Source: Chlorobiota bacterium
Lineage (GTDB): Bacteria; Bacteroidota; Chlorobiia; Chlorobiales; Chlorobiaceae
Length of the DNA: 64,000 bases
Reading direction: 5' to 3'
Assembly: GCA_016866305.1 (NCBI GenBank)
Contig: VGMX01000014.1
Span: 2,161-66,160, forward strand
Both the position numbers and the translations under genes were made by a program. This document shows, one piece after another, positions 10,982-64,000 of this stretch. Numbering within the stretch: position 1 is the first letter of the stretch; every line of letters starts with the position of its first letter. The notes under the pieces were generated by a model. That model was not told where the DNA came from. It searched no databases and was given only the letters and a program-made list of their open reading frames with translations.

Positions 10982-12256
10982 TCAGGTGGTCAGCGCCGTG
11001 CCGGGATTGAGCGAAGCGGCAATTCTTGAAGGAATGAAGGCGAACAGCATGGTCAGCAGGACAACGGCAAACCCGACGGCAAGGTAATCCAGCGGATCGA
11101 TCATCAGTGGCACAGAGGTGATGAAATAGCTTTTTTCCGGGAGGGAGATCAGATGAAAGCGCTGTTCGAACAGGGTGAGCCCAAGTGCCGTAACCGCTCC
11201 GGTAATGACTCCTGCAAGCGCGATAAGCAAGGACTGCCCAAGAAATATCCTGCTGATTCTGCGAGGTTCGAGCCCGAGCGCAATCAGCATGCCGATTTCC
11301 CTGGTTTTCTCGATAACGAGTACCAGAAGGGTGGAAATAATGTTGAAGACCGCAACCACCGTAATGGTGATGATCAAAAGGGGGGAGATGTTTTTCTGCA
11401 GCTTGAGCCATTCAAAAAGGTTCGCATAGCGCTCGAAAACCGTATAGGTATAAAACGGAAACCCGAGTTTCCTGCCGAGATCTCCGGAAACCGACGCTAT
11501 CCGGCCGATATCGTCCACCCGGATATCATAACCGCTGATCATTCCGGGATGAAACCGTTTTTGAACCTCATCGATGCTGCCGAGCACCACGACATCGTCA
11601 AACCCTTCCTGCAGCCCGGTGTCATAGATTCCCTTTATCCGGCCCCGTTCAAGATCAAGCGAGGAAAGCAGTTCGACAATTTCGGCATTTCCGCTGATCA
11701 TGGCGTCGGACTCATTGCCGTTCAGCCCGGCCAGCAACACCCGGTCCCCGCTTTTCAGGCCGAGATATTCCGCAAGGGTTTTGCCGATATAGAGCGACAG
11801 GACGCCCTCTTCTGCCGGCTCCGAAGCGGCTTCGCCACTGAAAAGGTACTGTTTCAGGAATTCCGCCCGTTCCTGTCCGGTGATGCCCTTCAGCACCACG
11901 GGGCGTACCGCCGCCCCACGCTTGTCCTCTGCGGATCGGCGGCTGCGCAGAATGAAGCTTTTTTCAAGAAAGGGCGAAACCGACATGACTCCGGGAGTCG
12001 CTGTGATCGAACGCCTTTCGAAGCGGCTTTGCTGAAAATAGCGGTCTCCGGCCTGGCGCACCTGGATGTGCGAAGTGAAACTGATCAGCTTGTTTTCGAT
12101 GCTGACGGCAAACCCCTTGACGATCGAAAGCGTCAGGATGAGCGCGGCTGTTCCGACGGCGATGCCGACAACTGAAGCAAGCACGATAAATGCAGGTCTG
12201 GAACCGGTGCGCTCCCTGAATGCAAACCGGCGGGCAATGAAGAATAACGGGTTCAT
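10982..12256 (-). CDS. LolC/E-like (MacB/FtsX) ABC permease
   Basis: GIAVGTAALILTLSIVKGF, EKTREIGMLIALG, IPSRIAASLNP motifs. Confidence 0.87.
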   Translation of the reverse strand: MNPLFFIARRFAFRERTGSRPAFIVLASVVGIAVGTAALILTLSIVKGFAVSIENKLISFTSHIQVRQAGDRYFQQSRFERRSITATPGVMSVSPFLEKSFILRSRRSAEDKRGAAVRPVVLKGITGQERAEFLKQYLFSGEAASEPAEEGVLSLYIGKTLAEYLGLKSGDRVLLAGLNGNESDAMISGNAEIVELLSSLDLERGRIKGIYDTGLQEGFDDVVVLGSIDEVQKRFHPGMISGYDIRVDDIGRIASVSGDLGRKLGFPFYTYTVFERYANLFEWLKLQKNISPLLIITITVVAVFNIISTLLVLVIEKTREIGMLIALGLEPRRISRIFLGQSLLIALAGVITGAVTALGLTLFEQRFHLISLPEKSYFITSVPLMIDPLDYLAVGFAVVLLTMLFAFIPSRIAASLNPGTALTT

Positions 12257-53660: not shown

Positions 53661-54353
53661 TCAGTCGCGGACGCAGCGCACCGACATGCCGTCGATTTTT
53701 TCCTCGCCGCTTCTCACCACGGTTGCGACATGGTAGTTGAGCACCCTGTACCACCCGAGCGAGGGGGAGTGTTCCGCAGAAGTCCAGAAATACGCGCTCT
53801 GTGCACCAAACGCGAAAACGCCGTCGATGCCCCTCAGACCCCCGGGAAGCGCACTGAAGCCGCTCGTGTTTGTTGCTGCCTCGTTCGGGGTGCGCCAGAG
53901 CGAGCGCCCGGCCTCTTTCATTTTTCCTCCGGCGACGGCTTCACCGCCAAGAAAAGCGGTCAATTCCGACCACTCCCTGTCGGTCGGCACATGCCAGCCT
54001 TTTGGGGCCAGACCCCGAGGATCGTTGACGGCATACCAGTTGTACAGACGCCCGAAATTTTTTCCGTTTGCCGGATCGTTGTCGAAGTAGCACCATGCAC
54101 CTTCCCCTTTTGCGGCTGCGTCGAGCCACTCCTCCCTGGTGGCGGCATGCCTGATGGCGTCTCCGTTGCGGTAACGGCTCACCCTCAGATTTTCCGCCGT
54201 CCAGACCTGCTTTCCGGCAGTTATGGCATGGTAGCCGTTTCCGTCGATATCCCTCATCCTGTCATCCGAAGCGCGCAAAGGCACTGAAAAGAGGGTGATT
54301 ACGCTCATGAGAAGCAACATGAGCATTTGCCTGGTAATGTTCCGATGTTTCAT
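53661..54353 (-). CDS. FISUMP (Fibrobacter succinogenes major paralogous) domain secreted protein
   Basis: Signal peptide; DIDGNGY, QVWTAENL, GRLYNWYA, PKGWHVPT..EW, GFSALPGG, FWTS, SVRCVRD; SD GGAGG. Confidence 0.9.
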   Translation of the reverse strand: MKHRNITRQMLMLLLMSVITLFSVPLRASDDRMRDIDGNGYHAITAGKQVWTAENLRVSRYRNGDAIRHAATREEWLDAAAKGEGAWCYFDNDPANGKNFGRLYNWYAVNDPRGLAPKGWHVPTDREWSELTAFLGGEAVAGGKMKEAGRSLWRTPNEAATNTSGFSALPGGLRGIDGVFAFGAQSAYFWTSAEHSPSLGWYRVLNYHVATVVRSGEEKIDGMSVRCVRD

Positions 54354-54428
54354 CCTTTTCCTCCGTTTACTGTTGCTGTTGTTCGGTACGGCCGTCCTGA
54401 ACACGAAACGATCATGACGACCGGAAGA

Positions 54429-54484
54429 AAAGTAACGGAGGAAAGCTTAAGCGGACTTTAAGCGACACTTAAAAGAGGCTTAAT
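54429..54484 (-). promoter_or_regulatory. 4x TTAA(G) array at 11-bp pitch plus -10 (TACTTT) for the FISUMP gene
   Basis: TTAA at 54447, 54458, 54469, 54480; TAnnnT 11 bp beyond the last TTAAG on the minus strand. Confidence 0.65.
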
Positions 54485-54870
54485 TTTATCGGGATGGAGA
54501 ATCCCTGCAGGTATGGCAGTCCGATATTCCTGGGGGACTGAAAAGCTCCTTGACAAGCCTCCGCCACCGCAGGAAAAACCGGAGTATAACAACCGGGGCT
54601 TATCTTGCCGGCACGGGGAGCCTGGCCTTTCGGGCCGGTACCGTCGCAGACACCTGCTCCCCTAGCGGAAACGACTCGGCTGCCGTTGCCCGATCCATCG
54701 AGAGGGCGTATATAATCCGGGTCCTGACCATTGGGTATGCCGTCGCCATCGCCTCCGCCTATCAGCTGCATGAGGGGATTGTCAAAGAAACCTCCGGCAA
54801 CGGCCGGAACTGCGGGTGAAAGCGCCAATACGGCAACGGCAAGGGCAAACATGCGAACGATTCCTTTCAT
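54469..54870 (-). CDS. Small secreted Gly-rich protein with DGDGIPNGQDPD and CDGTGPKG motifs
   Basis: SD AAAGGAG before ATG 54870; signal peptide ending AVA; TSP3-like DxDG motif; C-terminus possibly extended by a frameshift. Confidence 0.72.
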   Translation of the reverse strand: MKGIVRMFALAVAVLALSPAVPAVAGGFFDNPLMQLIGGGDGDGIPNGQDPDYIRPLDGSGNGSRVVSARGAGVCDGTGPKGQAPRAGKISPGCYTPVFPAVAEACQGAFQSPRNIGLPYLQGFSIPIKLSLF

Positions 54871-54940
54871 GAGGGTGTCTCCTTTGTTCTGGTTGTTGCG
54901 GGGAGAGAGTCTTCGCATACAGCTCCCCTTATTACGAAAG

Positions 54941-54955
54941 GCAATTCACATACCA
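54941..54955 (-). promoter_or_regulatory. Sigma-54 (-24/-12) promoter
   Basis: Minus strand TGGTAT-GTGAA-TTGC (GG-N10-GC), 70 bp before the ATG. Confidence 0.75.
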
Positions 54956-55043
54956 GAAAAGGGAAAAAAATCTATCATATTATTATTCAATCGCTTATGG
55001 AGAAAAAGAAAATGAGAACAACCTGCAGCAAAAGCGTTGATGA

Positions 55044-55077
55044 CAACCGGCTCGTCGCTGTTTCGACGGTATGGGCG
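55044..55077. promoter_or_regulatory. Tandem enhancer (UAS) CAACC-N4-CGTCG / CGACG-N4-GGGCG
   Basis: Two 8/10 matches to CGACC-N4-GGTCG, 20 bp apart, 88 bp upstream of the -24 element. Confidence 0.6.
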
Positions 55078-55127
55078 AAAAGAGTGCTTGTTTCATGAAA
55101 ACCGGCGCCTGGCTGGAGCATATCCCG

Positions 55128-56486
55128 TCATTTCATGCCATATTTCTTCAACTTGTATCGCAGATGGCGCTCGCTGATGCCAAGCATTTCTGCGGCACGC
55201 GTCTGCACCTGACCTGATTCCCTCAGCGCTTCGGTAATCATTTCCTGCTCGAAGGCTTCCACCTTTTCGGTAAAACCGCCTTCAGCAACTTTTGCGCCGG
55301 AAGATTCCGGACGGTATTCGAATACCCGCATCGGAAGATCCTCGGTGGTGATGGTCGAGGCCCGCGAGAGAACGACGGATTGCTGCACGATGTTTTCAAG
55401 TTCACGGACGTTGCCGGGATAGGAATATTTCATCAGGGCATCCATCGCCTCCCTTGAAATTCCGGTAATCTGTTTCCCGTTTTCTTCGCTGAATCGGTGA
55501 AGAAAGGCATCGACAAGGGGAAGTATGTCGTCACGACGTTCCCGCAGGGAGGGAATCCTGATGGAGACGACATTGAGACGGTAGTAGAGATCCGCCCGAA
55601 GCGTCCCCTGGCGAACCATCGATTCGGGATCGCGGTTTGTCGCAGCTACGATCCGTACATCGGCCTCGAGGGGTGTCGAGCTGCCTACTCGTTCGAACGT
55701 TTTTTCCTGCAGTACCCTGAGCAGCTTGACCTGCAGGGAAAGCGGTATTTCGCCGACTTCGTCAATGAACAGAGTGCCGCCCTCCGCCAATTCGAAGCGC
55801 CCCTTGCGCAGCCTGTCAGCACCGGTAAATGCACCTTTTTCGTGACCGAAAAGCTCGCTTTCAAGCAGGGTTTCAGGCAGTGCCGCGCAATTGACGGCAA
55901 CAAAGGGCTTTTCCCTCCGGCTGCCTGAAAAATGAACAGCCCTGGCGATCAGCTCCTTGCCGGTACCGGTCTCTCCGGTAACGAGCACCGATACATTGCT
56001 GGAGGCCACCCTACCGGCAATGTTCATCACCTGTGCCATCGCGGAAGATTGCGATATGATGCCCTGAAAACCGAAACGCTCCGAAAGCTGTGTTCGAAGA
56101 AGGCTGTTTTCGCTGATAAGCTGCTTCCGTTCCAGCGTATTGCGGATCATGATCCTGAGCTGGTGAAGGTCAACCGGTTTGGTGATGTAGTCGATTGCAC
56201 CGAGTTTCATGGCCTCGATAGCCAACTCCACGCTTCCGTAGGCGGTCATGATGACAACCTCGATACCGGGATTCCGGTGCTTCAGTGCCGAAAGCAGTTC
56301 GACTCCGCTCATTTCAGGCATTCTGAAATCGGAAAGCACGATATCGACAGCCTCCTCGGCGGCGATTTCAAGAGCTCTCCGGGGATGCGAAGACTTCAGC
56401 ACCCGATACCCCTGTTTGGAAAGAAAACCGGCGATGCTCTCAAGCTGGACGCTTTCGTCCTCAACCACAAGTATGGTATGATCCAT
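55128..56486 (-). CDS. Sigma-54-dependent response regulator (NtrC/ZraR/AtoC-like)
   Basis: REC domain (VVEDE, SDFRMP), GETGTGKE, ESELFGHEKGAFTGA, FIDE, DLYYRL, C-terminal Fis-type HTH. Confidence 0.95.
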   Translation of the reverse strand: MDHTILVVEDESVQLESIAGFLSKQGYRVLKSSHPRRALEIAAEEAVDIVLSDFRMPEMSGVELLSALKHRNPGIEVVIMTAYGSVELAIEAMKLGAIDYITKPVDLHQLRIMIRNTLERKQLISENSLLRTQLSERFGFQGIISQSSAMAQVMNIAGRVASSNVSVLVTGETGTGKELIARAVHFSGSRREKPFVAVNCAALPETLLESELFGHEKGAFTGADRLRKGRFELAEGGTLFIDEVGEIPLSLQVKLLRVLQEKTFERVGSSTPLEADVRIVAATNRDPESMVRQGTLRADLYYRLNVVSIRIPSLRERRDDILPLVDAFLHRFSEENGKQITGISREAMDALMKYSYPGNVRELENIVQQSVVLSRASTITTEDLPMRVFEYRPESSGAKVAEGGFTEKVEAFEQEMITEALRESGQVQTRAAEMLGISERHLRYKLKKYGMK

Positions 56487-56532
56487 TATTGTCAGCCACC
56501 CGTTATATGAATGATTGCCGAAAAACCGCCGT

Positions 56533-58575
56533 TCACACAGCCGGCAGCACAACCCTGAAGACACTTCCCGCTCCTTCCCTGCTCGAAACCTCGATCATCC
56601 CTCCGTGGGCGTGGACAATCTGGTTGGCGATACTCAGCCCCATACCGGTGCCGTCGTCTTTAGTGGTAAAATAGAGGTTGAATATTTCCGGGAGTTTCGC
56701 GGCAGGAATTCCCGTACCGGTATCGGCAACCTCGATAACCGCCTGGCTCCCACGGCAGAACACCCTTAGCGCAATGTGTCCCCCCTCGGCTGTGGCTTCA
56801 ACGCTGTTTCGAACGATGTTGAGCAGCACCTGCTGCATCTGCTCCCTGTCGAGCTGTACCGTTTTCCGGCACCCGGCATCAAGCGTAAAGCGGACACCTT
56901 TCTTTTCGGCCTCACTCTGCAGTACGGTACTGTAGCTTCCGACAAAGTCGTTAAGATTGACCGGCACCGGCATAAGCTGCGGCGGACGGACGAATTTGAG
57001 AAAGCGCTGGATAATGGCGTTGACGCGGTGCACCTCGGACACCACGGTTCGAACGAGATGGCGGTACTCGGGTTCGTCGGCAGCCGGCGAGAACTCGATA
57101 TCGAGGCGTTGAGCCAGAATACCGATGGCGTTCAGCGGATTCCTGATCTCATGGGCAACTCCGGAAGCCAGCTCTCCCATTGCGCTGAGCTTCTCCTGCC
57201 GGTCGATAACCTGCTGCATGGCACGCTCTTCCGTCAGGTCGCGAAGAACGGCGACAGCCCCCAGGATACGCTCTCCGTTACCGGTTATTCGGCTGAAATT
57301 TCCTGCCAGCAGCCTTTCCCGATCGCCTGCATGGCAGAGAAATTCGCGATTGAAGGCAGCCTCGCTCCCTTCATCCATGATACCGGAAAGAAATTGAGCA
57401 CATTCAGGAAAAACCGCCTGTACGGGTTTGCCTGTCGCTTCGCCGGAAGAGACCCGAAGCAGCTTCTCGGCCGGTCTGTTGATCAGGGTTACGCTCCCGG
57501 CAGCGTCTACCGTAAGAACGGCGTCTGCCATGCTTTCAAGAATGGTGGATGAAAATGTCTGCACCCGCTGGTAGGCGTCTTTTATAACCGTTTCGTTTCT
57601 GCGGCTTATGACGAGGTTGAACATGACAAGCCCTCCGATGGCAACAAGAGTGAACAGCATGAAAAAACGGTTTCGCAGCTTATCGAGGGCCGCGCTGAAA
57701 TGATCGTTTTTCAGACCTATGCGCAAAAGCCCCACATTGGCAGAACCGTAATAAAAGGAATTCACGACTTCAAAAACCGTTCTGCCTTCGAATGCGGTCA
57801 TCCGGGTCAGCGGCTTACGGGTCAGCATGGCCGATTCGAGAAAAGCGTCAGACCGGACGGATGCGGTTTTCGAAACATTGGGCGTGGCGGCCAGAATCCC
57901 GGTCGAGTCCTGCCAGATAATGTAGTCTATACCGGTACTGTCGGCTCCTATACGCTCAATGAGCTGGCCGACGCCAAGTTTCCGGCGCAGATCGAAAAGC
58001 CTTGTCGCATCAACATTTCCGGCAATCACACCACCCCTGCTCCGTTTGACGGCGGCAATCAGACGTGGCCCCCTGTCCGAGGAGCTTTGGCGGATTCCAA
58101 GCAGCAGGGAATCCTTTTGACCGGAAAATATCGGCTGCAGACAGAGCCGGGAGTCACACTGACGTAAGAGAGGGGTATGATCGGGTGGTGAATTGAAAGC
58201 GATGCGCTTTCCCTTGCTATCGAAAATGTTGACGCGGTAGATTCCGCTCGATCCGGCAATTGCTGAAAGCTCCTTCGAAGTCAGCTCGTGCTGTTTATCC
58301 AGGCGGTCCAGAAGGCGGAGCTGATCGATAAGGCTGCCTGTCAGGAGGGAGCTGTTTTCGGTATAGCCGGTGATGGCATTTTCAGCGCCCTCAGACAGCG
58401 CGTGCATGAGCAGTGCAGCCTCCTCGCGCATGATGTGCTCGATCTCGGATTTCCGGTAGTGGTATTCAAAAAGAGCCGTTCCGAGAAACAGGAGCACAAA
58501 AAGGGCAAACGCTGCGCCAAGATACTTCGGCGAAAGCATCATTACCCGTTTTTCCGGAAGCCTGTACTGTTCCAT
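56533..58575 (-). CDS. Sensor histidine kinase (periplasmic sensor, PAS, HisKA, HATPase)
   Basis: Two TMs; AHEIRNPL H-box; NIVRNS, DTGTGI, FTTK.GTGMGL. Confidence 0.93.
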   Translation of the reverse strand: MEQYRLPEKRVMMLSPKYLGAAFALFVLLFLGTALFEYHYRKSEIEHIMREEAALLMHALSEGAENAITGYTENSSLLTGSLIDQLRLLDRLDKQHELTSKELSAIAGSSGIYRVNIFDSKGKRIAFNSPPDHTPLLRQCDSRLCLQPIFSGQKDSLLLGIRQSSSDRGPRLIAAVKRSRGGVIAGNVDATRLFDLRRKLGVGQLIERIGADSTGIDYIIWQDSTGILAATPNVSKTASVRSDAFLESAMLTRKPLTRMTAFEGRTVFEVVNSFYYGSANVGLLRIGLKNDHFSAALDKLRNRFFMLFTLVAIGGLVMFNLVISRRNETVIKDAYQRVQTFSSTILESMADAVLTVDAAGSVTLINRPAEKLLRVSSGEATGKPVQAVFPECAQFLSGIMDEGSEAAFNREFLCHAGDRERLLAGNFSRITGNGERILGAVAVLRDLTEERAMQQVIDRQEKLSAMGELASGVAHEIRNPLNAIGILAQRLDIEFSPAADEPEYRHLVRTVVSEVHRVNAIIQRFLKFVRPPQLMPVPVNLNDFVGSYSTVLQSEAEKKGVRFTLDAGCRKTVQLDREQMQQVLLNIVRNSVEATAEGGHIALRVFCRGSQAVIEVADTGTGIPAAKLPEIFNLYFTTKDDGTGMGLSIANQIVHAHGGMIEVSSREGAGSVFRVVLPAV

Positions 58576-58624
58576 CTTTTTCAGTCATACTCCTGAAAGG
58601 TGTACGCCGCAATCATGAGCGTCC

Positions 58625-59458
58625 TCAAGGGCTGATCATGGTTTCAAGCATTTCGCGCAACCGGCTCATGTCGATGCCGTTTCTATCGGCTATTGCCCTC
58701 AGGGTCATAGCCGGCTCGGCTTCGATGCCTTTTTGCTTCATGGCAAGCTGCAGTGAAGCAGCCGATACGCCAGCTTCATCGGCTACCTCCTGCAGGGTTT
58801 TGCGACCAAGTCCCTCTGCCGGAAGTTTCCTGGCTCCGCTTTTTTCGGGAGCAAGAGGAACGTAAAGCTTTTCGGCCGTCGTATGGTTCTTCAGGGCTAT
58901 CTCCCCAAGGGTCTGCTGAACCGAATCCACCCTGAATCCAGCTTTTTCGAGCTTCGCCTTCAGTATCCCCGCATCACCGCCAAGCCCCGGCTGAAGCGCA
59001 AGCTCGACAAGCGTCATGGTTTCGGCGTGAGGCACCGGTGGCTGCATCTCCCTTTTTTCCCACGACGCCGATACGCTGTTGCCGAAATCGATGATCGCTG
59101 CAAAAGGCTGCAGGGAAGAGTAGGTCCCGACTCCAAAAAGAAGCGCAAGCAGCACGCTGCCGGACAGCTCCAGCGGACTTTTCAGGCCGGCGCTCGTCTT
59201 TGTTTTCAGATACGAGAAGAACGCCTTCCAGTTGAGGACGAAAAGATGGAATATCGAGAGCAGGGCGAAGGCGAAACCGAAAATCGCATGCTGGTTTTCC
59301 CACCCGGTTTTTGTCAGGCCGAGCATGCGCCAGTCCGTCCAGTTCGCCACCCTGCCGGGTGGAGAGATATAGAGAATCACCCCCGAAACAAGCAGCATCA
59401 GAAAGGATAGCAGAAGCCCGAAACTGACAAAAATCCGCCAGCTGAACGATTTTTTCAT
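58625..59458 (-). CDS. DUF4405 (cytochrome b-like) membrane protein with four TLxEIA-type repeats
   Basis: SD AGGAGG 5 nt before ATG 59458; WENQH and IFHLFVLNW TM histidines. Confidence 0.8.
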   Translation of the reverse strand: MKKSFSWRIFVSFGLLLSFLMLLVSGVILYISPPGRVANWTDWRMLGLTKTGWENQHAIFGFAFALLSIFHLFVLNWKAFFSYLKTKTSAGLKSPLELSGSVLLALLFGVGTYSSLQPFAAIIDFGNSVSASWEKREMQPPVPHAETMTLVELALQPGLGGDAGILKAKLEKAGFRVDSVQQTLGEIALKNHTTAEKLYVPLAPEKSGARKLPAEGLGRKTLQEVADEAGVSAASLQLAMKQKGIEAEPAMTLRAIADRNGIDMSRLREMLETMISP

Positions 59459-59471
59459 GTTCACCTCCTCT

Positions 59472-59894
59472 CTACTGGTTCATAAGCCGACCCTTTCCTC
59501 CGCCACCCATACCTCTTCCACGACCCATTGCCGGGTTGTACTGATCCCAGAACCATCCGGTCACGGCCTTGAGCTCAGCATCAGTAAGCTTGATGAGCGG
59601 CATGAGCCCGAAGCGCGTTACCGCCTGCTGATCGACAGCTTTGTTTTTATCGGGTTTTTTCAGAAATGCTGCCATGTGAGCTACACCCTCGGCTTTCGTC
59701 GCAAACTTCTCGTGGTAGCGGTTGGCCAGAGGGATAACCGGCGGAGCGGATTTGGGGGGCGGATTGATGGAGTGACAGACGCTGCAGTTGCGATCGAATA
59801 CCGCCCTGCCGTCAGGCGTTACGGCCGTTGCCGCCGAAGGATGAACCTCCGATACGATTCCAGATAACATAAACACATACAAGATTTTTTTCAT
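59472..59894 (-). CDS. Periplasmic monoheme cytochrome c
   Basis: SD AAAGGAG; signal peptide; CSVCH; candidate distal Met in FGLMP. Confidence 0.88.
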   Translation of the reverse strand: MKKILYVFMLSGIVSEVHPSAATAVTPDGRAVFDRNCSVCHSINPPPKSAPPVIPLANRYHEKFATKAEGVAHMAAFLKKPDKNKAVDQQAVTRFGLMPLIKLTDAELKAVTGWFWDQYNPAMGRGRGMGGGGKGRLMNQ

Positions 59895-60039
59895 GACAAC
59901 ACTCCTTTGATAACAACCATTGCTGAACCTACAGACATCAACTTTGCCCTGCAAAGCATAACGCGGCAGCATCGCCCGGCGTTCTGGCTCCAATCGCCCC
60001 GACGGTTACTCGCGATACTTTCATGGCAATAAGTAAATA

Positions 60040-60054
60040 TCAAAAAACATGCCA
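60040..60054 (-). promoter_or_regulatory. Sigma-54-like promoter with -12 GA variant
   Basis: Minus strand TGGCAT-GTTTT-TTGA; supported by the UAS pair 89 bp upstream. Confidence 0.6.
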
Positions 60055-60143
60055 ATAAGAGAAAACATCACGCAACCTCTTTTTTCAGAAGGCATTACGC
60101 GTCGTTCGGCGTTAACGGCCACAACACTGCAGTATAAGAATTC

Positions 60144-60177
60144 CGACCGAAAGGTCGAAATATCGACCATACGGTCG
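60144..60177. promoter_or_regulatory. Tandem perfect palindromes CGACC-N4-GGTCG x2 (candidate enhancer)
   Basis: CGACC-gaaa-GGTCG at 60144 and CGACC-atac-GGTCG at 60164. Confidence 0.7.
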
Positions 60178-60214
60178 GAGTCGCAGCCTTTCGGAAAGGG
60201 AACCCCTCCGTAAT

Positions 60215-60270
60215 TTTAAGCGAAGTTTAAGCTTCTCATGAGAATCCTTTAAGGAAAGGGATGCTACCTT
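60215..60270 (+). promoter_or_regulatory. TTTAAG array at 11-bp pitch plus extended -10 (TGcTACCTT)
   Basis: TTAA at 60216, 60227 and 60249 (60238 degenerate ATGA); -10 at 60265. Confidence 0.68.
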
Positions 60271-60340
60271 GTTCATGTTTTAAGCCATAGTCAGGCGACA
60301 GCCTTCGGGAGCCTGACGAAACATAACCAAAGGAGATAGC

Positions 60341-60889
60341 ATGACATTGAAATCATGGGCAACCCCGCTTGCCATCGGAGCTTTTATCATTTCTGGCGTT
60401 ACAGGTCTTCTGTTATTTTTCGATATTGAAATCGGGCTGGTCGAACCGGTTCACAAATGGCTCAGCTGGCTGCTTCTTGGAGGCATCCTGCTCCATACCG
60501 CTTCGAACTGGAAGGTGTTTACCGGTTATTTCTCGAAAAAAGCCGGCCTTGGAATAATCGGCGCGGCGGCTCTTGTCACGACGCTCTCACTGCTGCCGAT
60601 GTTCGGCGAGGGCGAAGAGGAGCACGGAAAGGAGAGCACCGGAAAAGCCGCCGTGCAGGCGCTCGAATCCTCTTCGCTCGAAACCGTCGCACTGGTTCTG
60701 AAAGCGACACCGGAAGACCTTGCCGCAAGACTTGAAAAAGAAGGCATCGCAGCCACCAATCCGTCCATGACCATCGCCGAGATTGCGCAAAAGAACGGAA
60801 AGGAGGAAAAAATGGTGCTCGGAGCGCTCTTCGGGAAACCCGGAAAGGGCGGAGAGGAGCGGATGGAGGGTGACGAAGACGATCATTAA
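60341..60889 (+). CDS. DUF4405 membrane protein with acidic C-terminal tail
   Basis: SD AAAGGAG; VHKWLS and LLHTASNWK TM histidines; ends EGDEDDH. Confidence 0.82.
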   Translation: MTLKSWATPLAIGAFIISGVTGLLLFFDIEIGLVEPVHKWLSWLLLGGILLHTASNWKVFTGYFSKKAGLGIIGAAALVTTLSLLPMFGEGEEEHGKESTGKAAVQALESSSLETVALVLKATPEDLAARLEKEGIAATNPSMTIAEIAQKNGKEEKMVLGALFGKPGKGGEERMEGDEDDH

Positions 60890-60904
60890 CGAATTACAAC
60901 TGTC

Positions 60905-61573
60905 ATGCGGATTCTTGTCATCGAGGATGAACCCGGAATAGCGCGCTTTCTCAAGGACGGACTTGAAGAGGAGTATTTTGCCGTCGATCTGGCGTTCGAC
61001 GGCAAAAGTGGCCTTGATATGGCTCTCCTGAACGAGTACGATCTCCTGATCGTTGACTGGATGATTCCGGGCATCAGCGGTATCGAGGTGTGCCGGCAGG
61101 TTCGCAAGGCCGGCATCGATGTGCCGCTGATTTTCCTGACCGCCAAAGACGCCCTCGAGGATATCGTATTCGGCCTCGACGCCGGTGCCAGCGACTACAT
61201 CAGAAAACCGTTCGCCTTCGAGGAGCTGCTTGCCCGCATACGGGTTCAGCTCCGCAGAAACAGCCCCGCCGGCGACCAGCTTACGGCCGGAAGGCTCAGC
61301 GTCAATCCCGTTACCCATCAGGTATTCTGCGGCACCGGAGAGATCATGCTGACCCCGAAGGAGTTTTCCCTGCTGGAGTATCTGGTGCGCAACAAGGAAA
61401 AGGTCTGCACCAGAAGCCGCATCATCGAACACGTCTGGGACATTCATTTCGATTCCGATACCTCGGTAATCGACGTGTATATCAACTTTCTCCGGAAAAA
61501 ACTCGACCATGCAGGGTGCGGAAACATCATTCAGACCATCCGGGGCGTCGGCTACATCATCCGCGAGTCCTGA
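60905..61573 (+). CDS. OmpR/PhoB family response regulator (CusR/CzcR-like)
   Basis: MRILVIEDE, VDWMIP, LTAK, GASDYIRKPF, LTPKEF.LL, DVYI..LRKK, IQTIRGVGY. Confidence 0.95.
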   Translation: MRILVIEDEPGIARFLKDGLEEEYFAVDLAFDGKSGLDMALLNEYDLLIVDWMIPGISGIEVCRQVRKAGIDVPLIFLTAKDALEDIVFGLDAGASDYIRKPFAFEELLARIRVQLRRNSPAGDQLTAGRLSVNPVTHQVFCGTGEIMLTPKEFSLLEYLVRNKEKVCTRSRIIEHVWDIHFDSDTSVIDVYINFLRKKLDHAGCGNIIQTIRGVGYIIRES

Positions 61574-63070
61574 ATGCCGGGCATAAAAAAAAACAGAGGG
61601 TTCGGCCGGAAGCATGCCGGTTCCGTTCAGGAAAAACCTTCCCTGAGCCTGCGCAGCCGCATTGCACTCTATTACACCATCGCGACGGCAATCCTGCTCG
61701 CCCTTGTCTTTACGCTTGTATTTTTCACGGTCGAACGGGTGGTCTACAGCCACTTCGACGACGAGCTCGATCGGGAAGTCTCGGAAATCCTCGAAAAACA
61801 ATCGCATGGAAGATCTGATGTATGGAATTTCGACATCTCCGACGATGACAGCCACAGTGATGAAGGCGGCGATCATCATCACGAAAGAGGGGATGACGAA
61901 AACAGGGATGAAGATGATGAAGAATTTGTCCAGCTTGTCAGTCAGACCGGAAAAGTAATTGCCAGATCGGCTAACCTTGCCGGCGACACCCTCACCTTTC
62001 AACCCGGCGGACAGCAAAAGCGCTTTCGAAGCAGCACCGCCGGTCGGCTCGATGTGCGTCAGGTTCAGGTTCCGCTGGCCGATTCAAAAGGAAAAATCGA
62101 AGGTTACCTCCTCGCGGCGGTTCCCGTTCGGGATGCCGTCACGATTCTCGGCGATCTGAAGCAGGTGCTTCTGCTGTCGTATCCGGCCATTATTCTTACC
62201 CTCTTCATCCTCACAAGAGTTATTGCAGGTCGAAGCATCCGGCCGGTTGAAGAGGTCATTGCCTCGGCAGAAAAAATAACCAGGGAAAATCTCGAACGGC
62301 GCATTCCCCTTCCCCGAAACCAGGATGAACTCTACAGGCTTTCCGCCACAATCAACGCACTGCTCGAACGCCTCCAGGATGCGTTTCAGCGGGAAAAACA
62401 GTTTACATCCGATGCTTCCCACGAACTGAAAACGCCGCTCGCATCCCTGAAAGGCACTCTCGAAGTGCTGGTGCGGAAACCAAGGGAACGCGAACACTAT
62501 GAAGAACGGATCCGCTTCTGTCTTAAAGAGCTGGACCGGATGTCGAGACTGATCGACCAGCTTCTTGTGCTTGCCCGCTACGAAAGCAACGGCATAAAAG
62601 CTCATATGGAATCCGTGGATCCTGGTTGCCATATCAGCGAAGCGATCGGACGGATGCACCCCCATGCTCTGCAGAAAAACATTCCGATCAGTTTTACCGG
62701 GCCGGAATCATGCATGGTTTCGGCTGACCCGGCAATGCTCGACATGATTTTCGAAAATATCCTGTCGAACGCCATCAAGTACTCCCCTTCAGGGTCAACA
62801 GTCTCGGTGACGCTTTCAAACAGCACCGGTTCTGTGCTCTGCAGCATTGTCGATAACGGTATAGGCATTCCGGAAGAAAAGCTTTCAAGGGTTTTCGAAC
62901 GGTTTTACCGGGTTGACGAATCGAGAAGCTCGGGAACCGGGGGGTTCGGTCTCGGGCTCGCTATCGTGAAAAAACTTGCCGACCTGCAGCAGATAGCGGT
63001 AACGATAACAAGCCGCACAGGCACGGGGACAACCATCGAGCTGCGCTTTTCACGTCACGAAAAATTTTAA
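61574..63070 (+). CDS. Sensor histidine kinase (HAMP, HisKA, HATPase) with His/Asp/Glu-rich periplasmic insert
   Basis: FTSDASHELKTP, NILSNAIKY, DNGIGI, FERFYR, GGFGLGL. Confidence 0.94.
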   Translation: MPGIKKNRGFGRKHAGSVQEKPSLSLRSRIALYYTIATAILLALVFTLVFFTVERVVYSHFDDELDREVSEILEKQSHGRSDVWNFDISDDDSHSDEGGDHHHERGDDENRDEDDEEFVQLVSQTGKVIARSANLAGDTLTFQPGGQQKRFRSSTAGRLDVRQVQVPLADSKGKIEGYLLAAVPVRDAVTILGDLKQVLLLSYPAIILTLFILTRVIAGRSIRPVEEVIASAEKITRENLERRIPLPRNQDELYRLSATINALLERLQDAFQREKQFTSDASHELKTPLASLKGTLEVLVRKPREREHYEERIRFCLKELDRMSRLIDQLLVLARYESNGIKAHMESVDPGCHISEAIGRMHPHALQKNIPISFTGPESCMVSADPAMLDMIFENILSNAIKYSPSGSTVSVTLSNSTGSVLCSIVDNGIGIPEEKLSRVFERFYRVDESRSSGTGGFGLGLAIVKKLADLQQIAVTITSRTGTGTTIELRFSRHEKF

Positions 63071-63120
63071 GCGGTTTTTATGCCTTGTTTTATCCCTGCT
63101 TAAGAATCCCCTGATATCTT
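63066..63120 (+). promoter_or_regulatory. TTAAG array at 11-bp pitch plus extended -10 (TGaTATCTT)
   Basis: TTAAG at 63067 and 63100, degenerate TTATG at 63078 and TTTAT at 63089; -10 at 63115. Confidence 0.58.
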
Positions 63121-63193
63121 GTTCAAAAGAACACTGTCCCGAATACGAACGGATGGGCAAGTGATACTTTCTGTGGCTTGACGATTTCCGACA

Positions 63194-63772
63194 ATGTGGC
63201 AATCCGTGCTTATACAACGGGCTTTACCGCTCACGCTCTCCTACCTGCTGCTCGTTGCTGCAGCGATATCGCTCGATTACATCCTGCATGCCGCCCGTCT
63301 GGCATGGATCGGACGGTATCTGGGAGTTGCCGGAACAGCGTTTCTCGTTTTTTCGTTCGGGTATTCAGCCCGCAAAAAAAAGCTTGTCCGGAGCGGCACG
63401 CTTAAATTTTTTCTCAGGCTCCACTGCAATGCAGGGTGGATCGGAACTCTCATGGTGCTGGTGCATTCAGGTATCCACTTCAATGCGATGCTTCCCTGGG
63501 CGGCTACTGCCTTCATGATGATCGTAACTGCCAGCGGCCATATCGGGCAGTACCTTGTCCGAAAAATCCGGGAAGAGGTGAAAATGAAAAAAAAGCAGGC
63601 CGGCATCACGGAAAATGCCGATGATTTCCCGGACCAGCAGCACTACTGGGACAGCCTGACCGTGAGCGCTCTCGACAGATGGCGAACCATTCATATGCCC
63701 ATCGTTTCCGTGCTGCTTCTTCTCTGCATGCTGCATATCTTTTCCGTTATCTTCTTTCTGAACTGGGAGTAA
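63194..63772 (+). CDS. Multi-TM membrane protein with paired histidines (candidate heme b subunit)
   Basis: LRLHCNAG...LVHSGIHF, WRTIHMP, MLHIF; GTG start. Confidence 0.7.
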   Translation: MWQSVLIQRALPLTLSYLLLVAAAISLDYILHAARLAWIGRYLGVAGTAFLVFSFGYSARKKKLVRSGTLKFFLRLHCNAGWIGTLMVLVHSGIHFNAMLPWAATAFMMIVTASGHIGQYLVRKIREEVKMKKKQAGITENADDFPDQQHYWDSLTVSALDRWRTIHMPIVSVLLLLCMLHIFSVIFFLNWE

Positions 63773-63776
63773 AAAC

Positions 63777-64000
63777 GTGAAACCGCTGTTCGTTTTCATC
63801 CTGTGCCTCGTCATTCTCGCTGCGCTGGCTATAGCCTTTCCCGATCCGCTGCTAAGTCCCGGCCAGCTCCTGAAAGGACATGAAAAACTGGAAACATCCT
63901 GCCTGAGCTGCCACCAGCCATTCGGCGGAGCCGCATCGGCCCGATGCATCTCCTGTCACAAACCGGACGATATCGGGATCAGAAGCGTCGCCGGTAACCC
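63777..64000 (+). CDS. Multiheme cytochrome c (class III-like), 5' part only
   Basis: Manual translation from GTG 63777: N-terminal TM/signal, then GHEKL..CLSCH..F....CISCHK; runs off the window. Confidence 0.85.
   Translation, partial: MKPLFVFILCLVILAALAIAFPDPLLSPGQLLKGHEKLETSCLSCHQPFGGAASARCISCHKPDDIGIRSVAGN

Follow-up and report, generated by a model that had tools for sequence, protein, structure and literature searches.

Phased TTAAG arrays outline a predicted Chlorobiaceae regulon in which a two-component system is joined to multihaem cytochrome genes and FISUMP-type secreted proteins

In a 64,000-nucleotide stretch of a Chlorobiota bacterium genome (contig VGMX01000014.1), which we call the window, the short repeat TTAAG recurs at an 11-bp pitch ahead of three sets of genes: those for a secreted FISUMP-domain protein, for a DUF4405 protein with an OmpR/PhoB-family response regulator and a sensor histidine kinase, and for a 192-residue membrane protein followed by a multihaem cytochrome. 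Are these repeats the operators of that very regulator, tying genes 9 kb apart into a single system? The arrays themselves, their recovery by a matrix derived from other genomes and their conservation in Chlorobiaceae suggest that they probably are, and that the regulator encoded at 60905-61573 likely activates through them its own operon, the membrane-protein/cytochrome operon and the FISUMP gene. What makes this well-supported predicted regulon interesting is the conserved tie, in green sulfur bacteria, of FISUMP/Lcl_C proteins and a multihaem cytochrome module to a two-component system.

The three arrays are positioned in the window as follows.

54446-54487, minus strand: site 1, a four-unit array, read from the sequence, upstream of the FISUMP gene
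60213-60253, plus strand: site 2, with TTAAG at 60216, TTAAG at 60227, degenerate ATGAG at 60238 and TTAAG at 60249
63064-63104, plus strand: site 3, with TTAAG at 63067, TTATG at 63078, TTTAT at 63089 and TTAAG at 63100

At all three sites the pitch is exactly 11 bp and the units are head-to-tail direct repeats. Site 1 has all four TTAA starts (54447, 54458, 54469 and 54480) in exact 11-bp phase and reads, on the minus strand, TTAAG at 54483-54479, TTAAG at 54472-54468, TTAAA at 54461-54457 and TTAAG at 54450-54446; since this series runs towards the FISUMP gene, all three arrays are oriented alike with respect to the gene downstream. The slots at 63078 and 63089 of site 3 are degenerate, and the stop codon of the kinase (TAA, 63068-63070, closing the reading frame 61574-63070) falls within its first unit, as an earlier note on this DNA had remarked; every array position given there agrees with the sequence.

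Such repeats could in principle be due to chance or to a general feature of AT-rich promoters, such as curvature or UP-element-like tracts, rather than to protein-specific operators: the arrays do lie in AT-rich spacers, and 11 bp is also the phase of intrinsic bending. The counts, however, place the TTAA arrays far beyond chance. The tetranucleotide is about threefold under-represented in the window (41 occurrences against a mean of about 126 in 300 dinucleotide-preserving shuffles), and 10 of the 41 fall in the three sites. Pairs of TTAA 11 bp apart occur four times where 0.24 are expected from the shuffles, while arrays with three or all of their four units in phase start three times in the window and never in the 300 shuffles. 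When pitches from 8 to 14 bp were scanned in the window, no array appeared at any pitch other than 11 bp, and all four copies of TTAAGCG present in the window are inside the three sites.

An independent view of the sites is provided by a 45-column weight matrix, built from the arrays upstream of orthologues of the membrane-protein gene and used in two versions, one of 27 sites that excludes the window and one of 28 sites that includes the window's own site 3; site 2 was never part of the training. The earlier note had proposed a weight-matrix scan, and for this organism it covers the 64-kb window. With the matrix from other genomes the scan picks exactly the three sites: the 27-site version scores 35.3 bits at 63100(+), 30.4 at 60249(+) and 22.5 at 54450(-), followed by at most 3.7 bits anywhere else on both strands (128 kb). 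The recovery of the three sites by the window-excluded matrix is blind, and it finds site 1 in the FISUMP orientation. For the 28-site version the maximum in 60 simulated 64-kb windows is 11.6 bits, and in simulations from the AT-rich composition of the three spacers it is 17.5 bits, to be compared with 42.2 (site 3), 30.0 (site 2) and 23.5 bits (site 1). The earlier note had itself raised the objection that comparable arrays might be common in intergenic DNA, and in the window, despite its many other spacers, nothing else exceeds 3.7 bits. Taken with two further observations from relatives, namely that T-T-A-A-G including the G is invariant across genomes while adjacent AT-rich positions vary, and that the arrays are limited to a handful of gene families, these figures render an origin by chance or AT-richness very improbable.

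Three other candidates in the window were discarded. Site 1 could conceivably drive a plus-strand transcript, but that orientation scores only -2.6 bits, and the neighbouring gene there points in the opposite direction. The TTAAG at 60280, downstream of the site 2 promoter box and out of the 11-bp phase, has no conservation in orthologues. A TTAAG cluster at 2640-2690, considered as a fourth site, is out of phase and is not recognised by the matrix; this AT-rich spacer contains TTAAGTTAAC and TTAAGATTGTTAAC.

Each array is followed at a nearly constant distance by a promoter-like hexamer.

54429-54434, minus strand: TACTTT, predicted RpoD -7 box of the FISUMP promoter, 11 nucleotides past the proximal TTAAG, predicted start about 54422
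60265-60270, plus strand: TACCTT, predicted -7 box of the DUF4405-regulator-kinase operon, 11 nucleotides past the proximal TTAAG, predicted start about 60277
63115-63120, plus strand: TATCTT, predicted -7 box of the membrane-protein/cytochrome operon, 10 nucleotides past the proximal TTAAG, predicted start about 63127

The earlier note had placed a TAyyTT hexamer 10-11 bp past the last TTAAG at all three sites, which the spacings of 11, 11 and 10 nucleotides bear out. It had called this a -10 hexamer; the box is where it was said to be, but it is better described as the -7 box of Chlorobiaceae RpoD than as an E. coli-type -10. Differential RNA sequencing in Chlorobaculum tepidum defined a Bacteroidota-like RpoD promoter, TTG-N17-23-TAnnTTTG, with the -7 box TA[ATC][ATC][AT]T (bioRxiv 10.1101/172254), and TACTTT, TACCTT and TATCTT are all compatible with it. 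A scan for E. coli-type sigma-70 promoters gave no match at any of the three sites, as expected, because Chlorobiaceae RpoD uses the Bacteroidota-like -33/-7 promoter. Reading the three promoters, we found no -33 TTG at 17-23 nucleotides upstream of the box; the proximal repeat sits where this TTG would be. The layout thus looks like that of activator-dependent promoters, and the predicted starts are derived from the box positions. The window sequence has matches in lake-water metagenome DNA runs, with no RNA run among these matches. It had also been noted that two promoters share TGnTAyCTTGTTC; both sequences, TGCTACCTTGTTC at 60262-60274 and TGATATCTTGTTC at 63112-63124, are as described, but the TGn extended -10 is not kept in orthologues, where the conserved part is TAyyTT(k). 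At the FISUMP promoter the box region TACTTTTCTTCCGG is kept in three related loci (L083, L090 and L096). In the same three loci the leader TTCTTCCGGTCGTCATGATCG (54409-54428, minus strand), just past the predicted start, is also kept; it holds a short stem flagged by a terminator scan and may be a second control element.

How general is this arrangement? A metagenome scan with the 192-residue membrane protein returned 41 orthologous loci (61-86% identity), and in nearly all of them the four-unit array stands upstream of the membrane-protein gene; such an array is known from about 29 distinct genomes, and 28 sites were aligned. Its consensus there is nTTTTAAGnnATTTTTAAGnnnnnnTTCAGnCTnnTTTAAG, then TATCTTkT after 9-10 nucleotides, a distance matched in nearly all orthologues, with unconserved surroundings. 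In locus L001 an additional 529-residue gene separates the kinase from the array, which therefore belongs to the downstream membrane-protein/cytochrome operon and not to the kinase stop codon. The array also precedes the regulator's own operon, which in relatives consists of DUF4405-regulator-kinase or of regulator-kinase alone: 15 distinct orthologous loci have the same layout, with the third unit degenerate. An alignment of 12 such promoters shows TTAAG / TTTAAG / ..AG / CTTTAA invariant at 11-bp steps, with TA and one following T of the box also invariant or nearly so, while the flanks diverge. The operator is in this way conserved in orthologous promoters upstream of both the regulator's operon and the co-regulated genes.

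The matrix was also run on 0.52 Mb of Chlorobiaceae loci. Matches outside its training set precede only few families: the regulator operon, FISUMP, Lcl_C, a zinc-ribbon protein (in part with a CDF gene) and a small TPR protein. There are three sites in the 64-kb window, as the earlier note had it, but as a description of the regulon "three-site" is too narrow, given the further targets in related genomes. FISUMP arrays were found in L083, L090, L096 and L099. In L090 the FISUMP gene, which has an array of its own, divergently adjoins the regulator operon; L096 and L083 are arranged like the window; and in L099-L101 it is the membrane-protein/cytochrome operon from which the FISUMP gene diverges. 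In six loci the gene for a secreted protein of the Lcl_C (DUF1566) family, which matches the FISUMP proteins here weakly and below cut-off, stands immediately ahead of the regulator operon and has an array. In some relatives, then, the genes that stand 9 kb apart in the window are neighbours (FISUMP/Lcl_C genes with arrays adjoin the regulator or the cytochrome operon in L090, L099-L101 and the six Lcl_C loci), in support of the link proposed by the earlier note. The sigma-54 module that separates FISUMP from the regulator in the window is absent from these same loci and therefore looks like an insertion. In L112 and in Chlorobium chlorochromatii (L124) an array stands ahead of a His-rich zinc-ribbon gene followed by a CDF cation-efflux gene.

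The system is also present in cultured strains, namely Chlorobaculum parvum NCIB 8327, Chlorobium sp. BLA1, C. chlorochromatii CaD3 and C. ferrooxidans, so the prediction is directly testable. Upstream of the regulator operon the matrix scores 46.0 bits in Cba. parvum, 37.5 bits in Chlorobium sp. BLA1 and 22.6 bits in C. chlorochromatii, where the membrane gene and the zinc-ribbon/CDF operon have 33.9 and 13.2 bits.

Which protein would read these arrays? The genes concerned are listed here with the Pfam and NCBIfam families to which they were assigned; the gene calls of the earlier note are right by both.

53661-54353, minus strand: FISUMP-domain secreted protein of 230 residues from the ATG at 54353, with a signal peptide (PF09603, 6.5e-47; TIGR02145)
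60341-60889, plus strand: DUF4405-family small membrane protein, first gene of the regulator operon (PF14358, 1.2e-06)
60905-61573, plus strand: OmpR/PhoB-family response regulator, receiver and winged helix (PF00072, 6.3e-27; PF00486, 1.5e-25)
61574-63070, plus strand: sensor histidine kinase with two transmembrane helices, a periplasmic domain, HAMP, HisKA and HATPase (Pfam)
63194-63772, plus strand: 192-residue membrane protein, no family match
63778-64000, plus strand: multihaem c-type cytochrome, 5' part, cut by the end of the window, with two CxxCH motifs (CLSCH, CISCH) seen in the sequence

The regulator encoded between two of the arrays is the most likely candidate. Across 14 orthologues (69-97% identity) hardly any change is seen in its recognition helix, SVIDVYI[NT]FLR[KR]KL, which agrees with the invariance of the operator motif that it would contact, and all named orthologues come from Chlorobiaceae. 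Alternatively, the protein that binds the arrays could be some other regulator from elsewhere in the genome, perhaps also of the OmpR family, and the adjacent regulator would simply be among its targets. Our view of this genome spans only 64 kb, and many arrays of the membrane-protein gene are in loci without a nearby regulator gene, as this alternative would allow. Against it, the array precedes the regulator operon in 15 of 15 distinct loci in which the upstream region is available and the operon looks intact, the near-invariant helix matches the invariant motif, and the second regulator encoded in the window, a sigma-54 activator, has palindromic sites of its own. In C. chlorochromatii CaD3 the arrays of the membrane gene and of the zinc-ribbon/CDF operon are on a different contig from the regulator, raising a possible refutation; when this was checked, the genome still encodes the regulator orthologue, and with its own array. 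We therefore consider a different binding protein improbable, and the inference of the earlier note that the 60905 regulator autoregulates and co-controls FISUMP and the cytochrome module appears supported by the orthologous arrays and the matrix recovery; each computational check that might have overturned it came out in its favour.

With the adjacent regulator as the likely binding protein, the mechanism could be as follows. The kinase (61574-63070) would phosphorylate the regulator, which would then bind an operator of four head-to-tail 11-bp units with the consensus tTTTAAGnnnn, which makes a pair of tandem dimer sites along a single helical face, with units 2 and 4 strong and unit 3 degenerate (nTnAG or TTCAG). 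The proximal unit ends 10-11 bp upstream of the predicted RpoD -7 box TAyyTT, in the place of the usual -33 TTG, so that the bound regulator could recruit RNA polymerase, as PhoB and CiaR do. In this way would be switched on (a) its own DUF4405-regulator-kinase operon, (b) the operon of the 192-residue membrane protein and the 10-12-haem cytochrome and (c) the secreted FISUMP protein. Binding by this regulator, activation, the transcription starts and the signal are what we infer; as an OmpR/PhoB-type operator with autoregulation, the mechanism is conventional.

The position of the proximal unit can also be read in the opposite sense. As it overlaps the place where RpoD would contact the -33 element, the same regulator might repress, or have mixed effects, by occluding this region; OmpR-family regulators can repress from positions overlapping -33. 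However, the three promoters have no TTG 17-23 nucleotides upstream of the box, a lack typically seen where transcription depends on an activator; CiaR- and PhoB-activated promoters have the same 10-11 bp between repeat and box; and a site at the activating position before the regulator's own operon is the usual layout of positive feedback. Repression thus appears unlikely, although a little less so than binding by another protein.

Several observations weigh against activation of all three transcription units by this regulator. In the window site 3 has only two canonical units. The FISUMP arrays of L083, L090 and L096 each have one 10-bp step and one degenerate unit, and the association of FISUMP/Lcl_C genes with an array, found by tblastn in 12 of 12 cases (7 distinct) in the related loci plus the window, comes from a biased sample, because these loci were collected around the membrane-protein gene. 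Chlorobium sp. BLA1 has no separate array before the membrane gene; since the spacer is only 54 bp there, this gene is probably co-transcribed. In C. phaeobacteroides DSM 266 (L126, CP000492, 9578-17745) the kinase is split in two open reading frames and no array precedes the regulator, while the one array retained (29.4 bits at 12110) faces the gene for an autotransporter of 1769 residues. A hint in favour of the regulator comes from a softer test on unrelated loci from a kinase scan of a genome collection: the TTAA-type arrays within 4 kb of OmpR-family regulators score higher when the recognition helix is of the [DE]VY[IV]N type than when it is another (mean 10.8 versus 2.6 bits, Mann-Whitney p = 0.002), a correlation across phyla that is slightly confounded by GC content.

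Among these more distant loci, 11-bp arrays of the TTTAAT type adjoin homologous two-component systems in L031 (10940-10995) and also in L003, L016, L028 and L076 (Bacteroidales, Saprospiraceae, Udaeobacter), whose regulators share the (D/E)VY(I/V)N recognition helix; one array of L031 stands between the kinase and a PepSY-like gene. This suggests that the TTAA(G/T) direct-repeat specificity of CiaR and PmrA may extend to more OmpR-family regulators with a (D/E)VY(I/V)N-type helix in Bacteroidota-Chlorobiota.

The closest parallel to the predicted operator is that of CiaR from Streptococcus, NTTAAG-N5-TTTAAG, which ends 10 bp before the -10 and whose most important elements are the G and the second repeat (PMC3091779). 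Both systems combine a TTAAG direct repeat, a better conserved downstream repeat, about 10 bp to the box (here a predicted one) and an OmpR-family regulator. CiaR sites, however, have two units whereas the arrays here have four, with a conserved degenerate third; the host here is a member of Chlorobiaceae with a Bacteroidota-like -7 box, not TATAAT; and the targets are cytochromes and FISUMP instead of small RNAs or HtrA. The recognition helix, SVIDVYINFLRKKL here and VVEVYVSKVRKKL in CiaR, is identical at 7 of 13 positions and most other differences are conservative. We do not regard the regulator as a CiaR orthologue, as the helix differs at the remaining 6 of 13 positions, its best NCBIfam match is TIGR01387 and there is no CiaR-specific model among its 25 best NCBIfam matches. 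The PmrA box, CTTAAG-N5-xTTAAT, likewise has half-sites 5 bp apart, one strong and one weak, for a head-to-tail OmpR-family dimer (PMC3973317). PmrA/BasR differs in array length, promoter type and target genes, and the regulator is not PmrA by family score (154 bits with NF007928 against a cut-off of 330). What the earlier note had stated about the PmrA and CiaR motifs is correct according to these two sources (PMC3973317 and PMC3091779). The closest solved DNA-binding domain to that of the regulator is from CovR.

PhoB provides the parallel for repeat number and position. Its pho boxes, of which there are often several, are direct repeats in tandem at an 11-bp pitch that stand in for the -35, 10 bp ahead of the -10, and its operon is autoregulated, as predicted from the array here. 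The PhoB repeat is of the CTGTCAT type, unlike TTAAG, nothing ties the system here to phosphate, and the regulator does not qualify as PhoB (201.6 bits with PhoB models against a cut-off of 296.2).

The families that score best belong to heavy-metal systems. For the regulator it is TIGR01387 (223.3 bits, below the cut-off of 279.2) and for the kinase TIGR01386 (251.7 bits, below 292.55); because both scores are below the curated cut-offs, we do not file the pair as a heavy-metal system of the CusRS/CopRS/CzcRS kind, although the JGI annotation of regulator orthologues is CusR. In likeness to such systems, two lineages have the array before the His-rich zinc-ribbon and CDF cation-efflux genes; in contrast to them, no metal transporter is under an array within the window. 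The CusR/HprR box is palindrome-like and does not consist of TTAAG repeats. HprRS (HprRS-MsrPQ) resembles the system here in having under its control a haem-b membrane protein that has a redox partner in the periplasm. Since the pair scores best, if below cut-off, against heavy-metal families and arrays precede a zinc-ribbon/cation-efflux operon in some lineages, the signal may be a metal or a redox cue in the envelope. Sensing of metal by the acidic, His-rich periplasmic insert of the kinase was considered and rejected: the insert varies and is missing from more distant orthologues, and is therefore not a conserved ligand site. The window derives from an uncultured member of Chlorobiaceae, and its kinase is 77% and 55% identical to the kinases of two Chlorobiaceae metagenome-assembled genomes; a scan of the genome collection with it returned mostly paralogues, only L001 and L002 being orthologous.

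What would the regulated operon do? It consists of two genes, for the membrane protein and for a cytochrome of 280-327 residues with 10-12 CxxCH motifs, as seen in full orthologues (280 residues with 10 CxxCH in L090, 327 residues with 12 in L002). The membrane protein has no Pfam or NCBIfam match even at E = 10, and its family appears confined to these bacteria: wherever a homologue has a named source (167 of 167), that source belongs to Chlorobiaceae or Chlorobiales. Seven of its histidines, at 32, 77, 91, 95, 116, 167 and 181, are invariant. The AlphaFold model is of low confidence (predicted local distance difference test score 66), and Foldseek with this model found nothing in the PDB at E <= 0.001. 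A relation to the DUF4405 protein was also considered, and profile-profile comparison indicates none (probability 1.9%). As family, fold and profile searches gave nothing, the suggestion that this protein binds haem comes solely from the seven histidines. DUF4405 proteins are haem-b-binding membrane cytochromes (PMC11334425), and the one at 60341-60889, which has two invariant histidines, may be a co-sensor. A DUF4405 gene stands ahead of each of the two kinases in the region, at 60341-60889 and at 58625-59464; the former copy heads the regulator operon in most orthologous loci, and in L126 the DUF4405 gene is degenerate.

As a working hypothesis, we propose that the system may be a metal- or redox-responsive envelope electron-transfer module. 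More specifically, and quite tentatively, it might be a Chlorobiaceae-specific module in which the kinase, perhaps with the DUF4405 haem-b protein, senses metal or redox state and switches on an electron conduit together with FISUMP/Lcl_C proteins; this conduit could be trans-membrane, made up of the His-rich 192-residue membrane protein and the periplasmic 10-12-haem cytochrome. If true, this would provide the first regulatory and physiological context for the large FISUMP/DUF1566 family, with extracellular or periplasmic electron exchange or metal handling as candidate roles in green sulfur bacteria. Regulation in these bacteria is almost uncharted, and the set of arrays represents a concrete, testable predicted regulon with a defined operator (four tTTTAAG units, 11 bp), predicted starts and a small set of targets, which connect the two-component system with secreted FISUMP/Lcl_C proteins and with the pair of a family-restricted membrane protein and a multihaem cytochrome.

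Two further features occupy the region between the FISUMP gene and the regulator operon.

54469-54873, minus strand: small secreted open reading frame, with its stop codon inside unit 2 of site 1, counted from the distal end
55128-59894, minus strand: sigma-54 regulator, kinase, DUF4405 protein and cytochrome c (Pfam/NCBIfam)

Only the first 87 residues of the small secreted reading frame are conserved (L096), and in L096 a sigma-54-like promoter is found ahead of it. The spacer that holds site 2 also holds a sigma-54-type promoter, TGGCATgttttTTGAT, at 60039-60054 on the minus strand, and, about 100 bp further upstream, a pair of CGACC-N4-GGTCG palindromes 20 bp from each other (60144-60177). 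The divergent cytochrome c-DUF4405-kinase-sigma-54 regulator operon probably has its promoter and activator sites here, and L001 and L083 have the same layout of sigma-54 promoter and palindromes as the window.

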